UHGV virus genome: UHGV-0139000
DNA length: 41,137 nucleotides
Direction: 5' to 3' (one strand)
From: a virus
Shown: piece after piece, positions 2,950 to 28,797 of the stretch
How the letters are laid out: each line of letters opens with the position of its first letter
Position numbering within the stretch: the first letter of the stretch is position 1
Program-made: the position numbers and the translations under genes
The notes under the pieces: model-generated
What the model was told of the DNA's origin: nothing
Seen by the model: the letters and a program-made list of their open reading frames with translations, nothing else
Database searches by the model: none

Positions 2950-3514
2950 CATCAGGCGCGGTGCTGGTATCTGTTGCCGTCACCGCGTCAATGTAATCCA
3001 GCACGACGTTAAGTCGGGTTGTTTCTGCCTGCGTCAGTTTCCGCCCGGCCTGTAATTTCAGCTGAATCAGACTAATGGAAGCCATTGCTGCATCAATCAG
3101 TGACTGGCGCTGTGCTTCTGCCGCGTCTACTGCGGCACTGTGTTGTGCCTCAGTGTCTGTCACCCATTTCTCACCATCCCATTTATCGTATGGCGTTAAC
3201 GGTGAAATCGTGACATAACCGTCTTTGATGGCACCGATATAATCCACTGTAACAGCTGCGCCATTTTCAGTTGAGTAAACGGTCTCATTGCGATGGTCTT
3301 CTTCATGGCTCCATCCCTTACCCGTAAATACTGCCACTTTTCCCGGAATGTTTTCGCCCGGGTCAATACCAGTGGAACAGGCGGGTATACTTACGCCAGT
3401 ATTAATATATTCATCAGACCAGCCGGTATATTCATACGTTACTGCATTATAATAAAAACAACGCATATCGCCCGGCACTGTAGCCAGCCCATTTTCATCA
3501 AAAACAGGTTTCAT
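2921..3514 (-). CDS. tail fibre assembly protein (Tfa, active orientation)
   Basis: 197 aa immediately downstream of the tail-fibre gene; C-terminus TSTAPDVIWPELP shared with the Tfa' copy. Confidence 0.7.
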   Translation of the reverse strand: MKPVFDENGLATVPGDMRCFYYNAVTYEYTGWSDEYINTGVSIPACSTGIDPGENIPGKVAVFTGKGWSHEEDHRNETVYSTENGAAVTVDYIGAIKDGYVTISPLTPYDKWDGEKWVTDTEAQHSAAVDAAEAQRQSLIDAAMASISLIQLKLQAGRKLTQAETTRLNVVLDYIDAVTATDTSTAPDVIWPELPEA

Positions 3515-4326
3515 TATTTAGCCCTCACCAGAAAGTTAAATGCAATATTTCGCGGTCTGACAGCAACAAAATTCACACCATCACCCACAGAGTTACTGGT
3601 GAAATTAAATCGTGAAAATCCTGGCTGATTTCCGGCGATGCCATCATGAAAGTTAATTGCGTGTCCCGCACCTTCGCCTACATTCCCGGCAAACTGAGAA
3701 AAGTTTGTAGCTGCCTGCCAGCTTAATAATTCGCGACCACCGTCTGCACCTCGCCCGTCATCCCAGATACGAATGAAATCACCGCGGGCTTCAGGTAATA
3801 CCAGCGAAGGAAATACTTTCGCCAGCACAGGATAATCAGTGGCAGAGAATTTCGCGCCGTTGAACTTCAAAAACACCATACTGGACCAGCTGTCGATTAC
3901 AGTATTTGGCATTGCAGCGGACGGCCAGAAGAACGGAACGCCAATAGCTGGAGCACCTTCTCCCAAACCAAGGTTTTCGAGAGCTGTTTTCACCGTGCCG
4001 TCCGATTTGATATCGCCAAACGGATTCTTGCGGCTCAGGTATTCAACAGCAAACCCCGATCCCAGCAATTCAACAAAACCGGGCAGATCACCATTATCAA
4101 GCACATCCCGTTGCGTTTTATCACTTACAAACTGGGCCAGAGCTGCAGCAATAAAGCTGGCCTGCCGAATAACCTTATTGACTTGCGCACTGGAGGCTTT
4201 CCCTGCTGTAAATCCAGATAAAAGCGCGGGCAACGCTTCCCATTCCTCCTGCGATATAACATTGGCATTTCGATCCGTTGCAAACGCTTTAAAGTCATTT
4301 TTCGCCATCAGAGTAATACTCCCCAT
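3514..4326 (-). CDS. tail fibre protein (constant N-terminal part plus currently joined variable C-terminal part)
   Basis: 270 aa; gix-like site R lies inside it and encodes [10 protein letters not shown]; downstream Tfa; preceded by baseplate genes. Confidence 0.7.
3948..3974. other. gix/hix-like recombination site R inside the tail-fibre gene
   Basis: ttctcccaaaccaaggttttcgagag: 26-bp imperfect palindrome; 15 bp identical in inverted orientation to site L. Confidence 0.65.
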
Positions 4327-4988
4327 GCTCCTACATCAAAACCACTGATGAATTCGTTATCCATATCAAAACCAAAAAATTTTGAGCCTTCCGATGGGGT
4401 TTCCACCGAAGGTGTTTCAATGCCACCCGCCCATACCCCGGCGGCTTTTACTGTGAGATACCCCTGTTTAATTGCCGCAATTAACTCACGCGATACATCT
4501 GAAATATCAGTATCAGGAAAGACCCAGACCGATATCGTCATGTCCTGGTTATCGACTATCTGCATTCGCAGCCCGGATCCTGCTGTTGCCGCGTCAAGAA
4601 TTGCCGGAAGCGAATCATTCCGTCCGTCCCAGTTATTAATCGCAATCTTCGCTTTAAGAATGACACGATAAGTTTCATCGCTGAGATACATGTATCCTGA
4701 ATCAGGATCGTATGGTCCCTGCCATACCCCCTGATCATATCCAAGCCCGTCGGTATCCCAGCTGAAATAGACACCTGAGATAGGCTGGCTGACAACACGG
4801 CTACGTCCGATCCACAATCCAAGGATGTCAAGTTGCACACCAACCGCAGAGTCAATATCAAATGCACTAATCAGCCCTCTGGTGGCAGCCGCAACATCAA
4901 TAAGTGGCCGGGTCATCAGATCAACATGCGCAAGAAATTTAGGTTTGGTGGCGTGGTAGTTCGTGATTAGTTCGGTGTATTTGCTCAT
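4308..4988 (-). CDS. baseplate/tail protein (P2 gpI / Mu gp48-like position)
   Basis: 226 aa between the baseplate J-like gene and the tail fibre; assignment by synteny. Confidence 0.5.
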
Positions 4989-6184
4989 GACTCCACCGTT
5001 ATAACGATATTTTTCGGGGTACAGGACGCAGATTCGTTGTATCTGATATCAATGTTTGATGACGACAAAGCCCCCGGGGATTTCCCAATCGTCAGTTCCT
5101 GAATATCGTAATAGCGTGCATTCCCGCCACTCACCACGCCAAGATTCGCCGGTGAGTAAATGCGACTTAAAAGGACCGAATCACCAATCATCAGACTATT
5201 GATATAGTCGGAAATAGCCTGCTGGATCTGCTGCCCTATCTGTGAGGTATAACCCGTAAAAACTTTTAATTTAATCAGGGCATAAACAGGCACATCACTG
5301 GAACGCGAGAATTTGATTACATGGGGATTGCCGTATTTATCCGGAACCGTAACGGATGTTGTACCGTGAGTGGCTGTCCCCTGGCCTTTATTCCCTCTGA
5401 TAGCCTGAGCAATATCCGTTACATCACCGCCATCCACAATTACAGCAACAGAGTGTGGCGGTAACCCGTTACCGTCCTCCGAACCAGTATCGTTTTCATA
5501 GAGTTTGTGGCGGGTTACACCGGTAACATTAGAAACAGCACCATCCAGTGCTTCAAATGGGGTTATTGATGGCAACGCAACACTTTGCGACTGGCGGATA
5601 CGTAACTCAGCGTCAGTTTCTGCCGGAGTGCCCACAGTGGCTGCAGCAGGATTGGTTACCGAAACCCAGCCACGGGTTGGCGTATTAATTTCAGTGATAG
5701 TTCCAGCCAGCGCCGCCACTGCACCACTGACGGAACATGTTGCGGTCACCATCACTGTACCATCCACGCCTACCACCACTGAAGCAGGCAAACGCCATAT
5801 CACATTATTACTGTCTTTCACGCTGCCATTAATGATGGTTGTTCCGGCAGTTCCTGTAAGAAGCAAATCAACCGTAGAGTTCGTCGCGCCTTTACGTGAA
5901 ATACCATTTATTTTCACGTTACAGGTCAGTGCAGCCCCATAGCCGGTTGCCGGTGAAAAACAGTTGTAGACAGTTATCGCCATATTATTGGCATCATGAA
6001 TCGCCAGCGCCATCAGAGCCACCATCTGGCCGTCTTTGCTATCCGGTTCGAGGTAGGCATCACTGCCATAAATCTGCTGAAAATAGCTAATCAGGGTGCT
6101 GAGTATCGTCTGATAATCAGGCGCACTGATCCCCTCCGCGGTTACCTTTGCAGATAAACCGAGAGAATCAAGGTTCAGAGCCAT
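4985..6184 (-). CDS. baseplate J-like protein
   Basis: 399 aa; position and size fit the P2 gpJ / Mu gp47 family; follows the gpW-like and gpV-like genes. Confidence 0.6.
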   Translation of the reverse strand: MALNLDSLGLSAKVTAEGISAPDYQTILSTLISYFQQIYGSDAYLEPDSKDGQMVALMALAIHDANNMAITVYNCFSPATGYGAALTCNVKINGISRKGATNSTVDLLLTGTAGTTIINGSVKDSNNVIWRLPASVVVGVDGTVMVTATCSVSGAVAALAGTITEINTPTRGWVSVTNPAAATVGTPAETDAELRIRQSQSVALPSITPFEALDGAVSNVTGVTRHKLYENDTGSEDGNGLPPHSVAVIVDGGDVTDIAQAIRGNKGQGTATHGTTSVTVPDKYGNPHVIKFSRSSDVPVYALIKLKVFTGYTSQIGQQIQQAISDYINSLMIGDSVLLSRIYSPANLGVVSGGNARYYDIQELTIGKSPGALSSSNIDIRYNESASCTPKNIVITVES

Positions 6185-22877: not shown

Positions 22878-23084
22878 ATGACGCCCGCAGTTAGTACCCG
22901 ATTATTAGAACTGACTCGTGATTTAAATAACGATATTAGAATCGCTGCTATCTATGCTTTAGGAGAAGGAGGTAATGCTACGCTATCAGCCGTTAACCGT
23001 CTTCTTGAGTTAACTCGTGATTCAAATAACGACATTAGAATTGCAGCAACCAAAGCTCTCGGACGTATTTTTCGGAGCAAATAA
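22878..23084 (+). CDS. HEAT-like repeat mini-protein (68 aa, two tandem repeats)
   Basis: Strong RBS (aaaggag, 6 nt before ATG). Protein has two tandem copies of RLLELTRD(L/S)NNDIRIAA...ALG; the DNA copies differ at synonymous positions. Antisense between terS and terL. Confidence 0.6.
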   Translation: MTPAVSTRLLELTRDLNNDIRIAAIYALGEGGNATLSAVNRLLELTRDSNNDIRIAATKALGRIFRSK

Positions 23085-24739: not shown

Positions 24740-25099
24740 TTACTCCTTAGAGCCACCAAACTTGTTACCGATTACTCGCATTGCAGCCCCACGAATAGCA
24801 TCGACACCGATCAGCCCAACACCACCACCAATGGCAACAGAAAGCGATTTAGGCCATCCAACATACTCAAGAGCGGATGCAAAGGTCAGCGTCAGAGCAC
24901 CACAGAGCAAAATCTCAAGCGTTTTTCGTTTCCAGCCGCCGCCACCGCCAAAATAGGCAATGCGCAAGCCAGCCATAACAATTGACATAACCACTGCGCC
25001 CAACGGCGTATCTCCACGCCACCAACTTTGTAAGAGTTCCAGTAAGTCAGGCCAGGAATGAGGAGCATTGTGCATTTTCATACTTCCCACCTCCGCCAT
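24740..25099 (-). CDS. holin (putative)
   Basis: 119 aa with hydrophobic helices and Gly-rich stretches, directly upstream of the endolysin; possible dual-start N-terminus (M...MKM). Confidence 0.55.
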   Translation of the reverse strand: MAEVGSMKMHNAPHSWPDLLELLQSWWRGDTPLGAVVMSIVMAGLRIAYFGGGGGWKRKTLEILLCGALTLTFASALEYVGWPKSLSVAIGGGVGLIGVDAIRGAAMRVIGNKFGGSKE

Positions 25100-25182
25100 T
25101 ACGGGGTGTTGTTGAAAGGCGGGCCCTGCGTATACGCCCGTAGGATTGGGTTATGAGCCGTCCTTCGGTGGGCCCTGAATAC

Positions 25183-25205
25183 AAAAAAAGTTCGCCATAG
25201 CGAAC
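25183..25205 (-). terminator. rho-independent terminator in the late leader (tR'-like)
   Basis: Minus-strand hairpin gttcgc-tatg-gcgaac (25190..25205) followed by seven T (plus-strand A run 25183..25189); about 85 nt upstream of the holin start. Confidence 0.55.
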
Positions 25206-25435
25206 CTTGTTAAATTTGTTAAAAAAGGAAGTTATTTAACATAATGTACGTTATAGGAACCACACGATCCCCGCTCGCAATAGATTTGCGATGAAAGGCC
25301 TATTTAATCAACTTAAGTGGTCCAGAATGACGAAATTCGAGTGAATAAAAGGTGCATAAAAAAGGGCAAAAACTGCATAGCGTTTTTTCGCGACGAAAAC
25401 CCTGTTTTATTAACTTTTACTGAGAATAGAGCATT

Positions 25436-25459
25436 AAAAAAGGCCCCCTTGCGGGAGCC
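25436..25459 (-). terminator. rho-independent terminator downstream of the Q-region genes
   Basis: Minus-strand hairpin ggctccc-gcaa-gggggcc (one mismatch) followed by six T (25436..25441). Confidence 0.45.
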
Positions 25460-25526
25460 TCTTCGTGATGAACTGTTTTCAACAGATATCAGGCTAATCG
25501 GCTTTTTGGAATTCCACAACTATTTT

Positions 25527-25868
25527 TTATCTTACCTTGATGCCTGATGCCGTCAGATGTTTACGACAGTCCTGAATACCTTCGTTATAACCCGCATCGT
25601 AGAAGCTATCCGGCTTTGCCTTCAGCGCAGGAAGCGTAACGCTGGTAGCTCTTCGTTCGGCCAGAACACCTGCCTGAAAGAGTGTCCACATCAACTGAAC
25701 TGCTGAATCACAGTAAGTAACATCTTCACTGTACAATTCTCGTTCAATCCTGATGCCAAGTTGAGCCTTCATTGATGCGCCAATATTACCTTTGGCCTGC
25801 AACGACAGGTCTGGGTACCTCTGTTCCATGAAGCTTTCAAATCTGTTGCGAACGCTGATCAGAGCCAT
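25527..25868 (-). CDS. hypothetical protein (113 aa) downstream of Q
   Basis: ORF with phage-like codon usage; no motif recognised. Confidence 0.45.
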   Translation of the reverse strand: MALISVRNRFESFMEQRYPDLSLQAKGNIGASMKAQLGIRIERELYSEDVTYCDSAVQLMWTLFQAGVLAERRATSVTLPALKAKPDSFYDAGYNEGIQDCRKHLTASGIKVR

Positions 25869-25899: not shown

Positions 25900-26322
25900 T
25901 TATGCCGCCGAGCAGCTCCTACGCAAAGTCCTGATAGCCTGAGGCTTTGACTGAACCGACTGATCCATTTCGAGCACCACATCCAGCATGGCTAAGCAAC
26001 CGTCAATAAATCCCTCTGCCGCCTGAAGCCTCTTCAGAACGTGGGTGTGAGATACGCCGAGCTTCTCACCCATCGCCCTCACGGGCATGGCCTGGACGTA
26101 ATGCCACTCAAGGAGCGTGCACAGATACGGATCTTTTTTCTTCAGGCAGCTCATAGCGGAGTTGATGATAAGACCGTCATTGTCACTGCATTTCAGCCTT
26201 CCAGACTGCGTCGCGGGTAGCAGATTCTTAAACCCGGCTGCAACAGGAGGAAAGTAGACGCTACCACCTTCACTCGCTGCCCAGCCACCCCAGCGCTCTA
26301 AAACCTGTTGAATATTACGCAT
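25900..26322 (-). CDS. late-gene antitermination protein Q-like
   Basis: 140 aa, N-terminus MRNIQQVLERWGGWAA resembles enterobacterial prophage Q-type antiterminators as I recall them; sits upstream of late leader, terminators and lysis genes. Confidence 0.55.
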   Translation of the reverse strand: MRNIQQVLERWGGWAASEGGSVYFPPVAAGFKNLLPATQSGRLKCSDNDGLIINSAMSCLKKKDPYLCTLLEWHYVQAMPVRAMGEKLGVSHTHVLKRLQAAEGFIDGCLAMLDVVLEMDQSVQSKPQAIRTLRRSCSAA

Positions 26323-26449: not shown

Positions 26450-26645
26450 GAGTGGAACCACCTGCCCCCACCTGGAACCACCTTTTCCTAACCTTTCCCT
26501 CAATCGACTTATATATATATATGGGGTTTCTAGTAGAAAGGCGGTTCCAGTGGTTCCAGTGGTTCCGCCCCGCTTGCCACAAGGTCTGCAAGGTGGAACC
26601 TCCTTCTCTTTTAGGTGGTTCCGCGTGGTTCCAGCGGTTCCCAAA
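26450..26645. repeat. iteron-type replication origin
   Basis: Nine copies of GGTTCC/GGAACC (26454, 26474, 26543, 26552, 26561, 26595, 26617, 26627, 26636), several as GTGGTTCCA in both orientations, flanking (TA)n at 26509..26522; overlaps the 3' end of the primase gene. Confidence 0.7.
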
Positions 26646-28797
26646 CCTTGCATTTTTTCCCCCCAATTCGCCTTTGGGCACGCTTATACCCGCAATTTTG
26701 CAAAACATTACTAATTCGCATTTCTTCGCGTTTTCCGATGCGGTCAGGATTTAGCCCAATCGCATCACGCAAAACATCACTTGCGCGTAAAAATTCGCAA
26801 TTTCGCGGAAGTTCATTAGCCATCAGGTCTGGCGTGTCGAGCCATTTCTCTACCGTTTCAAGCCAAGCATCCTTGATGGTGTACTGTTCATGGACACTCG
26901 CTGCCAGTTGTTCAGCCTCACGGAACTGGATACCCCCCAGACGCTGAAACACCTCACGAGCCTCAGCCCAAAGTAAAAGGAGATCTCTTTTTATCGCTTT
27001 CACGTCGACTTTCGACACTTCCACGGGGAGCCAGCGACGGTTACCAGTCTTGTCCGCAAGGAATTCGTCCTCATTGGTGGTACCAACGAACACCAGGCGA
27101 CGAGGAAACTGGGTGGCGAACTCCCGGTATTTCGGGATCCAGTTTTCGTGAGTACGCGTCACAAACGCTTTGATTGACTCCAGCTCTTTGGTATTAAGTC
27201 CGCGCAGTTCACCAATCTCTGCCACCAGCCGACCACGCATTTTTCGAGCGAGATCATCGTCTTTTTCGGCAAAAGAGATTTCAGTAAAAAACGCAGGATC
27301 AGGGCTCAGTGCCTCCACTCCGGAAGACTTACCGCAGCCCTGCGGACCAACGAGGATCGGCACCATATCCGCTTTGATGCCTGGCTCCAGTACTCGCCCC
27401 GCCAACGCGGTCCACATGTACATAGACACCGCACGGGTATAAGGCGTGTCGGCTGTACCGAAGTGCGTATGGTAGAAACATTCGATGCGCGGCACGCCAT
27501 CCCACTCCAGCCCGTTCAGCCAGGTGATCGCTGAATCGAATGGTTGTTCATCGGCTGCAAGTAACACCACATCGCGAATAAGTTCACGACCAACAGGTTT
27601 AAATCCCCGCTTTTCCATCGTGATGCGCAGGCGCGCATAATCCGCATCGGTGAATGCTCGCCATTGTCCGGATCCTGCAGGGGCAAACATGATTTCGTCG
27701 CGGAACTGGTCAAAGCGAATATCGATGTCCACAAAATCAGGGCGTACTACTGCTTTGGCTGCGTTGCTGATGGTTGCCTCGATACGCCCCCATTTATCAC
27801 GCTCGAAAGCAGGCAGCGGTAAAGGTTCCGCCACTTCGGTGCTGGTCAGATCTTCGAAATCGTCGTTGCGGATCCCGATGGCATTAAGGAAATCTCCGTC
27901 ATCACGATGCGCACAACTGGCATGCAGGCATTTAAAATGCCCCTGCTCAAAGCCCGCGGTTCCCGCAGGAAAATAAGCTGTGCTTGTTGGATCGCCCCCG
28001 CTACTGTGGCCGTCTTCAAACGGACAGCGGATATATCGTTCACCATTTGCGCCATCCAGCAGCGTCCAGCCATTGGCATCAAGATATTCAGCTGTATCAT
28101 CCGTCGCGCCGGGCGTGAATGCTGATCGGTCGCGCATCTTCGTGTTGCCCGCTTCGGTGGTTACCGACACAGGGAGTTGTTCAGCCAGGCGCTGCCACAG
28201 CGTTTCAAGCTGCTCACCAGTAATAGCCGGAGGTTCATCCGGCAAACCACCGTCCCATTCAATACGCGCGCCGCTGCTGTGCGTACCACAGGCAACGAAC
28301 TGCTGCCCGTTCGCCAGCAACTCGATAATGCCCATATCCCCCGCCAGGCGATGGATACGCTTACGGAAATCACCATCAACGGCCAGCAGATACAGACACT
28401 TATTACTGTTTGCTCGCCAGCGTCGCGGCGGCAACTCCCCCAGAAGTTGCACAAGCGTTTTGCGAATATCTGCCTGAATGTCTTCATCTTCGCTATCGCA
28501 GTCCAGCGCCAGCCAGCCATGGCCTGTACGCACGCAGATGCCATAATCCGGTTCATTCGACCAGCGGGCAAAATCATGCTCAGTAACAACATACCCGGTC
28601 CATTGAGCAATACCGGTGACCTGGCGGTCCCGGTTATAGCGACTTGGCGTCTTACCCAGCGCTTTCAGTTTACTATCAGGGGATATGGTCGCACCGGGGT
28701 TACATACAACTGGGAGAAGATGCTCAGTTCTCCCCAATACCAGGTCGAAATGAAACCACTCATCAGGCGTAGCTCCCCATGGTTTGCTATCGGACAT
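26611..28797 (-). CDS. replicative primase-helicase (P4 alpha-like)
   Basis: 728 aa; Walker A VGPQGCGKSSG in the C-terminal half; N-terminal region primase-like; origin iterons at its 3' end; start 3 nt after the cro stop. Confidence 0.75.
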   Translation of the reverse strand: MSDSKPWGATPDEWFHFDLVLGRTEHLLPVVCNPGATISPDSKLKALGKTPSRYNRDRQVTGIAQWTGYVVTEHDFARWSNEPDYGICVRTGHGWLALDCDSEDEDIQADIRKTLVQLLGELPPRRWRANSNKCLYLLAVDGDFRKRIHRLAGDMGIIELLANGQQFVACGTHSSGARIEWDGGLPDEPPAITGEQLETLWQRLAEQLPVSVTTEAGNTKMRDRSAFTPGATDDTAEYLDANGWTLLDGANGERYIRCPFEDGHSSGGDPTSTAYFPAGTAGFEQGHFKCLHASCAHRDDGDFLNAIGIRNDDFEDLTSTEVAEPLPLPAFERDKWGRIEATISNAAKAVVRPDFVDIDIRFDQFRDEIMFAPAGSGQWRAFTDADYARLRITMEKRGFKPVGRELIRDVVLLAADEQPFDSAITWLNGLEWDGVPRIECFYHTHFGTADTPYTRAVSMYMWTALAGRVLEPGIKADMVPILVGPQGCGKSSGVEALSPDPAFFTEISFAEKDDDLARKMRGRLVAEIGELRGLNTKELESIKAFVTRTHENWIPKYREFATQFPRRLVFVGTTNEDEFLADKTGNRRWLPVEVSKVDVKAIKRDLLLLWAEAREVFQRLGGIQFREAEQLAASVHEQYTIKDAWLETVEKWLDTPDLMANELPRNCEFLRASDVLRDAIGLNPDRIGKREEMRISNVLQNCGYKRAQRRIGGKKCKVWEPLEPRGTT

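Follow-up and report, generated by a model that had tools for sequence, protein, structure and literature searches.

Xer recombination sites that come with accessory sequences are a textbook feature of small plasmids, and the dif-like sites of phages are known mainly as the attachment sites of filamentous phages. Among related elements, the loxP site of phage P1 lies near pac and also helps terminally redundant DNA to circularise; plasmid pdif modules are usually bounded by inverted sites. To our knowledge, partial parallels to the phage element described here are confined to loxP of P1 and to filamentous phages that integrate in a Xer-dependent way.

Sequences of psi from pSC101, which is served by XerCD with PepA and ArcA, and of cer from ColE1 were fetched for comparison, and a PepA-wrapped architecture has been described for both sites. 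The dif site of E. coli reads GGTGCGCATAA-TGTATA-TTATGTTAAAT (PMC3025954). CTXphi and other filamentous phages integrate via Xer through dif-like XerC/XerD sites, and in these elements the site serves as attP at chromosomal dif and usually has degenerate arms and longer central regions (PMC3025954); dif-like XerC/XerD sites are also carried by Acinetobacter plasmid pdif modules (PMC12907356). In P1, loxP and Cre provide a temperate phage with a site that keeps circular genomes monomeric (PMC2409434), an idea that would be shared by the element described here.

The DNA analysed (the window, a stretch of 41,137 nt from UHGV virus genome UHGV-0139000) is an E. coli prophage, 100% identical over the queried interval to strain ETEC-2264 and ~97.5% identical to the induced phage vB_EcoM-606R2. 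Our analysis indicated that the interval between its Q and holin genes is probably a Q-dependent late leader in which a psi/cer-type Xer site is embedded between two terminators, T1 and T2. The leader part is ordinary lambdoid biology, and neither half is new in kind. Their combination, in which a tailed prophage has a psi-homologous site and its accessory sequences within the late leader, paralogues occupy other late gaps and each copy has its own central region, had no counterpart in the literature covered by a limited search, and the same limited search returned nothing on Xer sites in tailed phages. In comparison to P1, which has its own recombinase and persists as a plasmid, the phage here would borrow host XerCD and integrates by its own integrase. 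Unlike the sites of Xer-integrating elements, the site here is intact inside the prophage, with a perfect XerD arm and plasmid-type accessory sequences, and its copies are direct, unlike those of pdif modules.

Gene setting and the probable late leader

The minus-strand gene order of the window is a cro-like gene, a VapE-type primase gene (26611-28797), a 290-nt gap, Q, an ORF of 113 aa and the interval, which is followed on its 3' side by a lambda-type holin, endolysin and Rz and then by terS, TerL, portal and head genes. Genes for a CI-type repressor and a tyrosine integrase, together with a DNA polymerase A module, are found on the divergent arm. The features that frame the interval are:

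25900..26322, minus strand: Q antiterminator gene, 140 aa (PF06530 Phage_antitermQ, E = 5e-42, full-length; PHROG 79)
25527..25868, minus strand: ORF113, an extra gene separating Q from the late promoter (split PHROG matches)
25082..25182, minus strand: 5' UTR of the holin gene, structured (folding at -38.1 kcal/mol, z = -2.39)
24740..25081, minus strand: lambda-type holin S with an MKM dual start, the first late gene (PF05106, E = 1.2e-27)

These profile matches bear out the original prediction that a Q-like gene lies upstream and a holin downstream of the interval. Identity between the Q protein of the window and those of 933W-type Stx phages is 42-46%, and PF06530 is the Q21/Q933W antiterminator family (bioRxiv 10.1101/651190); the sole PDB match obtained with Q, to Q21, was non-significant (E = 0.13). 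ORF113, which occurs in a subset of relatives only, had no Pfam match. The first late gene is annotated as a holin in relatives as well and opens an S/R/Rz lysis cassette of lambda type, and a hairpin in its 5' UTR covers the Shine-Dalgarno sequence GGAGGTG (25093-25087), this structure being conserved jointly with the holin module. The interval had been given as a non-coding stretch of ~430 bp. Its non-coding character stood, as no convincing gene was found in 25100-25526 among the ORFs of either strand, where a 68-aa minus-strand ORF and a 76-aa plus-strand ORF overlap the terminators and the conserved non-coding element. Its extent did not, because the holin start is the MKM motif at 25081 and the true intergenic span is therefore 25526-25082. 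The 76-aa ORF appears as a hypothetical protein in a few database records.

The leader itself comprises the following features:

25514..25519, minus strand: candidate PR' -35, TTGTGG, which aligns with TTTACG of Sakai Sp5 PR' and with four other Q cassettes
25507..25516, minus strand: palindrome TGGAATTCCA, a candidate Q-binding element, with an A5 tract (25507-25503) after it
25491..25496, minus strand: candidate PR' -10, TAGCCT, after a 17-bp spacer (aligned column TAnnnT in 6/6 sequences)
25483..25487, minus strand: predicted transcription start at ~25484, 7 nt past the -10 by homology with Sp5
25472..25477, minus strand: AACAGT, a -10-like candidate sigma-dependent pause element at ~+8 to +13, read by sequence
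25437..25464, minus strand: intrinsic terminator T1, at ~+21 to +48 of the predicted transcript (-19.9 kcal/mol, U6)
25183..25208, minus strand: intrinsic terminator T2 (-10.4 kcal/mol, U7, z = -4.08)

The candidate promoter TTGTGG-17-TAGCCT was not called by a promoter scan, its hexamers each matching the sigma-70 consensus at 3/6 positions, and was instead obtained by alignment with Sp5 PR'. The start of Sp5 PR' was mapped by dRNA-seq to 258 nt upstream of the Term-seq 3' end of tR' (PMC7547250). This distance was used in place of the published coordinate because the latter is off by 142 nt from the current RefSeq numbering; applied to the Sp5 sequence, it places the start 7 nt past TATCAT and 22 nt past the stop codon of Q, with a hairpin and T7 at +24 to +50. 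Six promoter sequences were aligned, namely those of the window, of Sp5, of three further Q cassettes located ahead of the element and of the Q-proximal site of terS-TerL-type phages, and in this alignment AAAAAATAGTTGTGG..CCAAAAAGCCGATTAGCCTGATA of the window corresponds to AAAAAATAGTTTACG..GTAAAAATCTGCATATCATGATA of Sp5 PR'. All six have in common a TT-rich -35, a cassette-specific palindrome of 10-12 bp, an A tract, TAnnnT and a hairpin with a T-run. A promoter regular expression applied to Q 3' ends at loci from 62 other genera gave 7 matches, the pattern being too narrow to inform.

The palindromes found in the other cassettes at the place of TGGAATTCCA are TACGATCGTA, TGTGCGCACA, TGTAATTACA and TGCGGGCCGCA. 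In the closest pair of Q proteins (57% identical) the palindromes TGGAATTCCA and TGTAATTACA are one symmetric base pair apart, and this co-difference is the behaviour that would be expected of a Q-binding element; the Q-binding element of phage 21 is a direct repeat and not a palindrome (PMC6606751). AACAGT might conceivably act as a pause element, its place matching that of TACATT at +7 to +12 in Sp5. Among known systems, the leader comes closest to the PR'-tR' leaders of 933W/Sp5-type Shiga-toxin phages (StxS) and of lambda (6S RNA), and the Q family is the same. As in the Sp5-type leader, the candidate promoter lies across or just beyond the end of the preceding gene, the -35, palindrome, A tract and TAnnnT have the same layout, and a hairpin with a T-run at ~+24 to +50 is followed by a second terminator a few hundred nt on. 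Unlike that leader, the locus has an extra ORF between Q and the promoter and a Xer site in place of the StxS sequence, and its transcription start is a predicted one.

Both minus-strand terminators are real, as originally proposed: each is a hairpin with a T-run that folds at z ~ -4 and has divergent equivalents in relatives. T1 has the GC core GGCUCCC-GCAA-GGGGGCC followed by U6 (z = -4.05, 0/200 shuffles as good) and would double as the end of the early Q operon. The stem-loop of T2, AAGGUUCGC-UAUG-GCGAACUUU with a seven-U run, sits 25 nt past the XerD arm described below. A generic terminator scan returned 2 sites in 4 kb against 4.0 +/- 2.3 in shuffles, an uninformative count, and missed T1. 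Relatives carry a hairpin and T-run at both positions with stems of different sequence, the T1 equivalents being GGCTCTC/GAGGGCC, GCTCCAA/TTGGGGC, GCCCCAA/CAGGGGC and GGCTCCG..CGGAGCC, and the recurrence of unrelated stems at the same two positions argues for selection. Terminators come after the Xer core in 28 of the 66 distinct contexts found downstream of it, again with non-homologous stems, and in those 28 the distance from the first base of the XerD arm to the beginning of the hairpin is 35-46 nt. At Q loci from other genera, a rough scan found a hairpin with a T-run within ~150 nt of the Q stop codon in 29/62.

The position of the candidate promoter upstream of T1 makes T1 the promoter-proximal terminator and T2 the second one. 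A sigma-70 promoter of 933W/Sp5 type (25519-25491) would start RNA near 25484; without Q, polymerase would halt at T1 and leave a main RNA of ~48 nt (25484 to 25437), and polymerases that escape T1 would halt at T2, giving a read-through product of ~300 nt. Q made from the early operon would load at the promoter-proximal palindrome, and the Q-loaded polymerase would pass T1 and T2 into S-R-Rz, the terminase genes and the head genes. The lambdoid PR'-tR' arrangement first suggested for the interval is thus retained in its Q family, lysis genes and Sp5-like promoter, which together make a Q-antiterminated late leader with two terminators the best reading. What is given up is the use of the terminator spacing as an RNA length, and a terminated RNA of 200-250 nt is no longer predicted.

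The probable Xer site between the terminators

T1 and T2 are ~200 bp apart, and between them lie a 28-bp core (block B) and, on its XerC side, ~170 bp of accessory sequence:

25262..25430, minus strand: accessory sequences of the Xer site, conserved in >100 loci
25412-25341, minus strand: block A of the accessory sequences
25361-25341, minus strand: tandem 11-mers TTTTATGCACC/TTTTATTCAC
25278-25274, minus strand: core-proximal GCGAG box
25251..25261, minus strand: predicted XerC-binding arm GGTTCCTATAA, 8/11 against dif GGTGCGCATAA
25245..25250, minus strand: central (crossover) region CGTACA, 6 bp, which differs between positional classes while the arms are conserved
25234..25244, minus strand: predicted XerD-binding arm TTATGTTAAAT, 11/11 against E. 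coli dif

By strong sequence criteria block B is a Xer core, and we infer that it would be bound by XerCD. The stretch 25261-25234 reads GGTTCCTATAA-CGTACA-TTATGTTAAAT, a pattern that occurs once in the window and in 0/100 shuffles. The XerD arm is invariant in 32/32 aligned representatives from three classes. The XerC arm is GGTGCCGATAA or GGTGCGGGTAA in relatives, matches dif at 8-9/11 positions overall and varies outside G.T.C...TAA, the arm of the window being the most diverged of the set. The inner bases form a palindrome, TAA-N6-TTA, that is kept across copies, and the central regions by class are CGTACA, CGACCA, GAACCC, CAGTCA and CGGTCA, with at least six different ones in all. This pattern of arms and central region agrees with the recognition rules for XerCD sites (bioRxiv 10.1101/2024.04.05.588136). 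A literature search on the invariant 11-mer TTATGTTAAAT led to papers on dif sites, and dif then explained the conservation pattern exactly.

Additionally, homology to psi extends into the accessory sequence. The core-proximal box, GCGAG in the window, is GGCGAGTG in close relatives, and psi has GGCGAGTG at an equal distance from its XerC arm; at this place close relatives read CTGTGGCGAGTG-N10-GGTGCC against TTGTGGCGAGTG-N10-GGTGCG in psi, and the window reads TATTGCGAGCGG. In the alignment, the tandem 11-mers of block A share their columns with the ArcA site of psi. Measured from the XerC arm to its centre, the repeat box lies at 92 bp in the window, at 82 bp in terS-TerL copies and at 91 bp in scaffold-proximal copies, the reference distances being 88 bp for the ArcA site of psi and 106 bp for the ARG box of cer. 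The window repeat box, TTTTA-N6-TTTTA, matches the ArcA direct repeat TGTTA-N6-TGTTA at 8/10 positions, and that of the scaffold-proximal paralogue (site iii), TGTTA-N6-TGTTG, does so at 9/10, for which the chance of a match anywhere in 198 nt is ~2%. The accessory protein of the window copy is uncertain because its box is of TTTTA type and not of the ArcA-type TGTTA, and because its spacing is 1 nt off that of an ARG box. The spacing from block A to the core is quantised at either 133 or 143 bp, and such 10-bp steps, taken with the lack of a shared RNA fold or Rfam match, would fit a PepA-wrapped DNA-protein architecture.

Compared with psi as a whole, the element shares a 28-bp core with a 6-bp central region, an XerD arm that differs by one base (TTATGTTAAAC in psi), accessory DNA on the XerC side and a direct-repeat box ~90 bp from the arm. 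It differs from psi in residing in an integrating tailed temperate phage of ~40 kb and not in a small plasmid, in lying, flanked by terminators, inside a probable Q-controlled late leader, in the TTTTA-type repeat box of the window and in an accessory sequence that is not alignable past its core-proximal part. With cer it shares a Xer core with ~200 bp of accessory sequence, a terminator soon after the XerD arm and -10-like hexamers that overlap the core. In contrast, cer has a central region of 8 bp against 6 bp here, an ARG box (12/16 at 106 bp) against an ARG spacing off by one, and the promoter Pcer with its transcript Rcd, whereas sequence analysis gave no evidence of an Rcd-like RNA in the element.

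Distribution and paralogous copies

Distant BLAST matches placed conserved copies of part of the interval in settings that do not involve Q, for example in the terS-TerL gap of another E. coli prophage and of Yersinia phage YP3. A scan of IMG/VR with the block A pattern recovered 97 viral contigs, to which the core pattern added more (>100 in total). The cassette was present in 146 of 5,426 complete E. coli genomes (~3%), including ETEC H10407 and several STEC serotypes, and 148/148 matching places in E. coli were chromosomal (prophages); a 77-kb Enterobacter plasmid record contains one relative. Gene mapping gave two main contexts, either directly after Q, as in the window, or in the terS-TerL gap, the latter in about half of the loci. 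A profile search found that terS-TerL phages have a second, diverged copy ~4 kb downstream in the gap between head-morphogenesis and scaffold genes, and the core-pattern scan gave further classes in the TerL-portal gap (CAGTCA, 21 loci) and after a primase-adjacent ORF. Overall, the cassette occupies at least five intergenic positions of the late region and, in every case examined, has the orientation of the flanking late genes. The core-pattern scan also matched unrelated small GC-rich contigs and dif itself.

Unlike central regions should block recombination between two sites of a tyrosine recombinase. Among loci with two cores, 26 of 27 had directly repeated cores with different central regions, and deletion of the DNA between the copies should thus be prevented. 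The exception was Yersinia phage YP3, which has three identical cores in a genome that looks rearranged or misassembled and was left out as evidence on function. Copies of the cassette elsewhere have no flanking terminators and stand ~25-30 nt upstream of start codons, so that shielding from transcription cannot be a general requirement of the site. Block B showed no co-variation with the type of Q, the same block B being found with Q proteins 44% and 100% identical to that of the window.

Competing readings and possible roles

The conserved block 25262-25234 could alternatively be a late promoter or a Pcer-like promoter, from which a start within the core would give an RNA of ~50 nt ending at T2, like Rcd of ColE1, with T1 merely ending the early operon. 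In a position-weight scan of 32 representatives the overlapping -10-like hexamers TACATT, CATTAT and TATGTT were the most recurrent promoter-like signal, and some copies have a good -35 partner (e.g. TTGCCA-17-TATGTT, 10.9 bits), but the best partner in the window is poor (TTGCGA-19-TATAAC, 4.1 bits) and a PR'-type promoter homologous to a mapped one is present upstream of T1. The block does stand at a fixed ~25-35 nt upstream of a Shine-Dalgarno sequence and start codon, or of a terminator, and there is precedent in the Pcer promoter of cer, which makes Rcd and is believed to be under the control of XerCD occupancy (PMC4393325). The invariant bases, however, are exactly those of the two Xer arms and end at the arm edges, and the 6 bp between them vary, unlike a -10/-35 arrangement. 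We therefore regard a promoter as a rather unlikely explanation of the block, although the block could be a Pcer-like promoter and a Xer site at once. A promoter between T1 and T2 was sought by eye and by position-weight scan, the motifs covered being sigma-70, extended -10, sigma-28 (GCCGATAA), sigma-54, Mu C-type dyads and T4 late-type, and the sole recurrent signal was the Xer core itself. Block A, which has a similar string, CG.AAAAAACG, was also tried as a 933W-type promoter and dropped because its TATGCA is without the -7 T and its spacing is off.

A structured or regulatory small RNA, in the form of a 200-300 nt leader stable in lysogens and comparable to lambda 6S RNA or StxS, is improbable to a greater degree. 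Stx phages provide the model, as their PR' is reported to be constitutive and its 258-nt terminated leader to be processed into the Hfq-binding StxS (PMC7547250), and the whole interval does fold somewhat better than shuffles (z = -2.95). Little long RNA would be expected, on the other hand, from a strong T1 at ~21-48 nt from the predicted start. The interval had no Rfam family match above chance, RNAalifold gave -1.1 kcal/mol for context 1 with site ii and 0 for all classes, and a compensatory hairpin considered upstream of the GAGT box failed to hold across classes. Shifts in spacing by exactly 10 bp and the homology to psi point to a function at the DNA level. The stable leader RNA of the original prediction thus gives way to a conserved psi/cer-type XerCD site in the inter-terminator stretch. 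Least probable by far is a pac or cos site or a replication origin. Such a reading can draw on the element adjoining terminase genes in most relatives, on its phased T tracts and tandem repeats and on TTATNCAC motifs that resemble DnaA boxes (TTATGCAC and TTATTCAC each at 8/9, read by eye); it has to contend with two or three copies per genome (terS-TerL, TerL-portal, head-morphogenesis/scaffold) and with others after Q or the primase-adjacent ORF, and with a 28-bp block that matches dif arm for arm beside a flank that matches psi. DnaA boxes, IHF sites and the pac/ori reading were rejected on account of these multiple copies and positions, and the iterons in the primase-Q gap are a better origin candidate.

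Under the preferred reading of a Xer site within a Q-dependent leader, host XerC and XerD would bind the 28-bp core, and the accessory DNA would be wrapped by PepA and by a protein of response-regulator type (ArcA or similar) bound at the tandem 11-mers. This would confine recombination to direct copies on one supercoiled molecule, and circular dimers of the phage genome would be resolved. We infer that such resolution is the simplest role, assuming a circular replicative form, and T1 and T2 may keep transcription off the Xer site until Q is made. It is important to note that Xer resolution dependent on accessory sequences is thought to be inefficient on large replicons, which counts against this role in a phage of ~40 kb, and that a phage with its own tyrosine integrase has no obvious need of a Xer site.

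More speculatively, and with a low probability in our judgement, host XerCD may act in a transcription-gated recombination device, the cassettes may be site-specific linkers between late modules, or both. As a gated device, the site would be free of polymerase before Q is made, barred as it is by T1 and T2, and circular genomes would stay monomers, favouring clean single-copy integration or orderly early theta replication; Q-driven late transcription would then displace PepA and XerCD and let multimers or concatemers build up for headful packaging. As linkers, cassettes at the Q-lysis, terS-TerL, TerL-portal and head-morphogenesis-scaffold borders could swap late-gene modules between related phages, or could cyclise terminally redundant DNA beside pac, as P1 loxP does. 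The locus would accordingly offer a natural example of a recombination site that antitermination could turn on or off, and the cassette is a testable candidate for the conserved linkers long postulated behind modular phage evolution. The paralogous copies in late-region gaps suggest that tailed temperate phages depend, in a way yet to be explored, on host XerCD and its accessory proteins. In the annotation of prophages, the conserved 28-mer and its flank are easily misread as promoters, small RNAs or small ORFs.

Possible recombination and other features of intergenic gaps

The gene between Q and the late leader is present in only some of the relatives, its two halves match different PHROGs, and a Pfam search of it returned no match.

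25527-25868, minus strand: ORF113, between Q and the candidate late promoter

The candidate promoter lying 3' of ORF113 is similar to the coding sequence with which Q genes of the 933W type end at their 3' side, and this resemblance suggests that recombination took place in the past.

Two other gaps in the window carried features of their own.

26453-26483 and 26543-26566: tandem arrays of TGGAACCACC (3.1 copies) and GGTTCCAGT (2.7 copies), respectively
22878-23084, plus strand: antisense ORF of 68 aa, occupying the terS-TerL gap

Both arrays are short and mutually inverted and fall inside the 290-nt gap from the VapE primase gene to Q, where they look like iterons and form a candidate replication origin. 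The spacing between terS and TerL was 5 nt in most close relatives in comparison to 312 nt in the window, and in the other phage group this gap is the location of the Xer cassette (a psi/cer-like site with a XerC/XerD core and an accessory sequence). The antisense ORF encodes two repeats of approximately 30 aa (LLELTRD.NNDIRIAA..ALG) and had no match in PHROG.

Leader and holin 5' structures

25075-25182, minus strand: holin 5' region, with an MKM dual start, a hairpin over the Shine-Dalgarno sequence and an upstream stem
669-696 of Sakai Sp5 (L168): hairpin followed by T7, GAACCCGCCGATGCGCGGGTTTTTTT, at about +24 to +50 of the mapped Stx2a-phage PR' leader

The dual start codons of the window holin, at 25081 and 25075, are like those of lambda S107/S105, and the predicted hairpin CACCCCGUAAUGGCGGAGGUGGG that spans its Shine-Dalgarno sequence resembles the lambda sdi structure, with a GGGCCC...GGGCCC stem located farther upstream. 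The Sp5 hairpin is strong and lies well ahead of tR', which the published account places at +258 of the mapped leader (PMC7547250).

Xer cores and cassettes in other genomes

15475, 17876 and 34307 of Yersinia phage YP3 (L169): three identical Xer cores, central region GAACCC, with terminators
3188-5464 of Enterobacter plasmid pE76_003 (L066): interrupted Xer cassette
L176, L181, L276 and L277 (GC-rich IMG/VR contigs of 6-8 kb): Xer core AGTGCGTATAA-CACCCA-TTATGTTAAAT

In the deposited YP3 genome the flanks of the cores are duplicated as well, which together with the identity of the three cores points to either rearrangement or misassembly at these repeats. In the phage relative pE76_003, whose record describes a non-mobilisable plasmid of 77 kb, the Xer accessory sequence is separated from the core by an additional ORF together with an insertion sequence of the ISKpn21 family. 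The core of the four IMG/VR contigs adjoins arrays of DnaA-box-like CTGTGGATAAC repeats; these contigs are probably Xer-using plasmid-like or filamentous elements and are without relation to the window phage.
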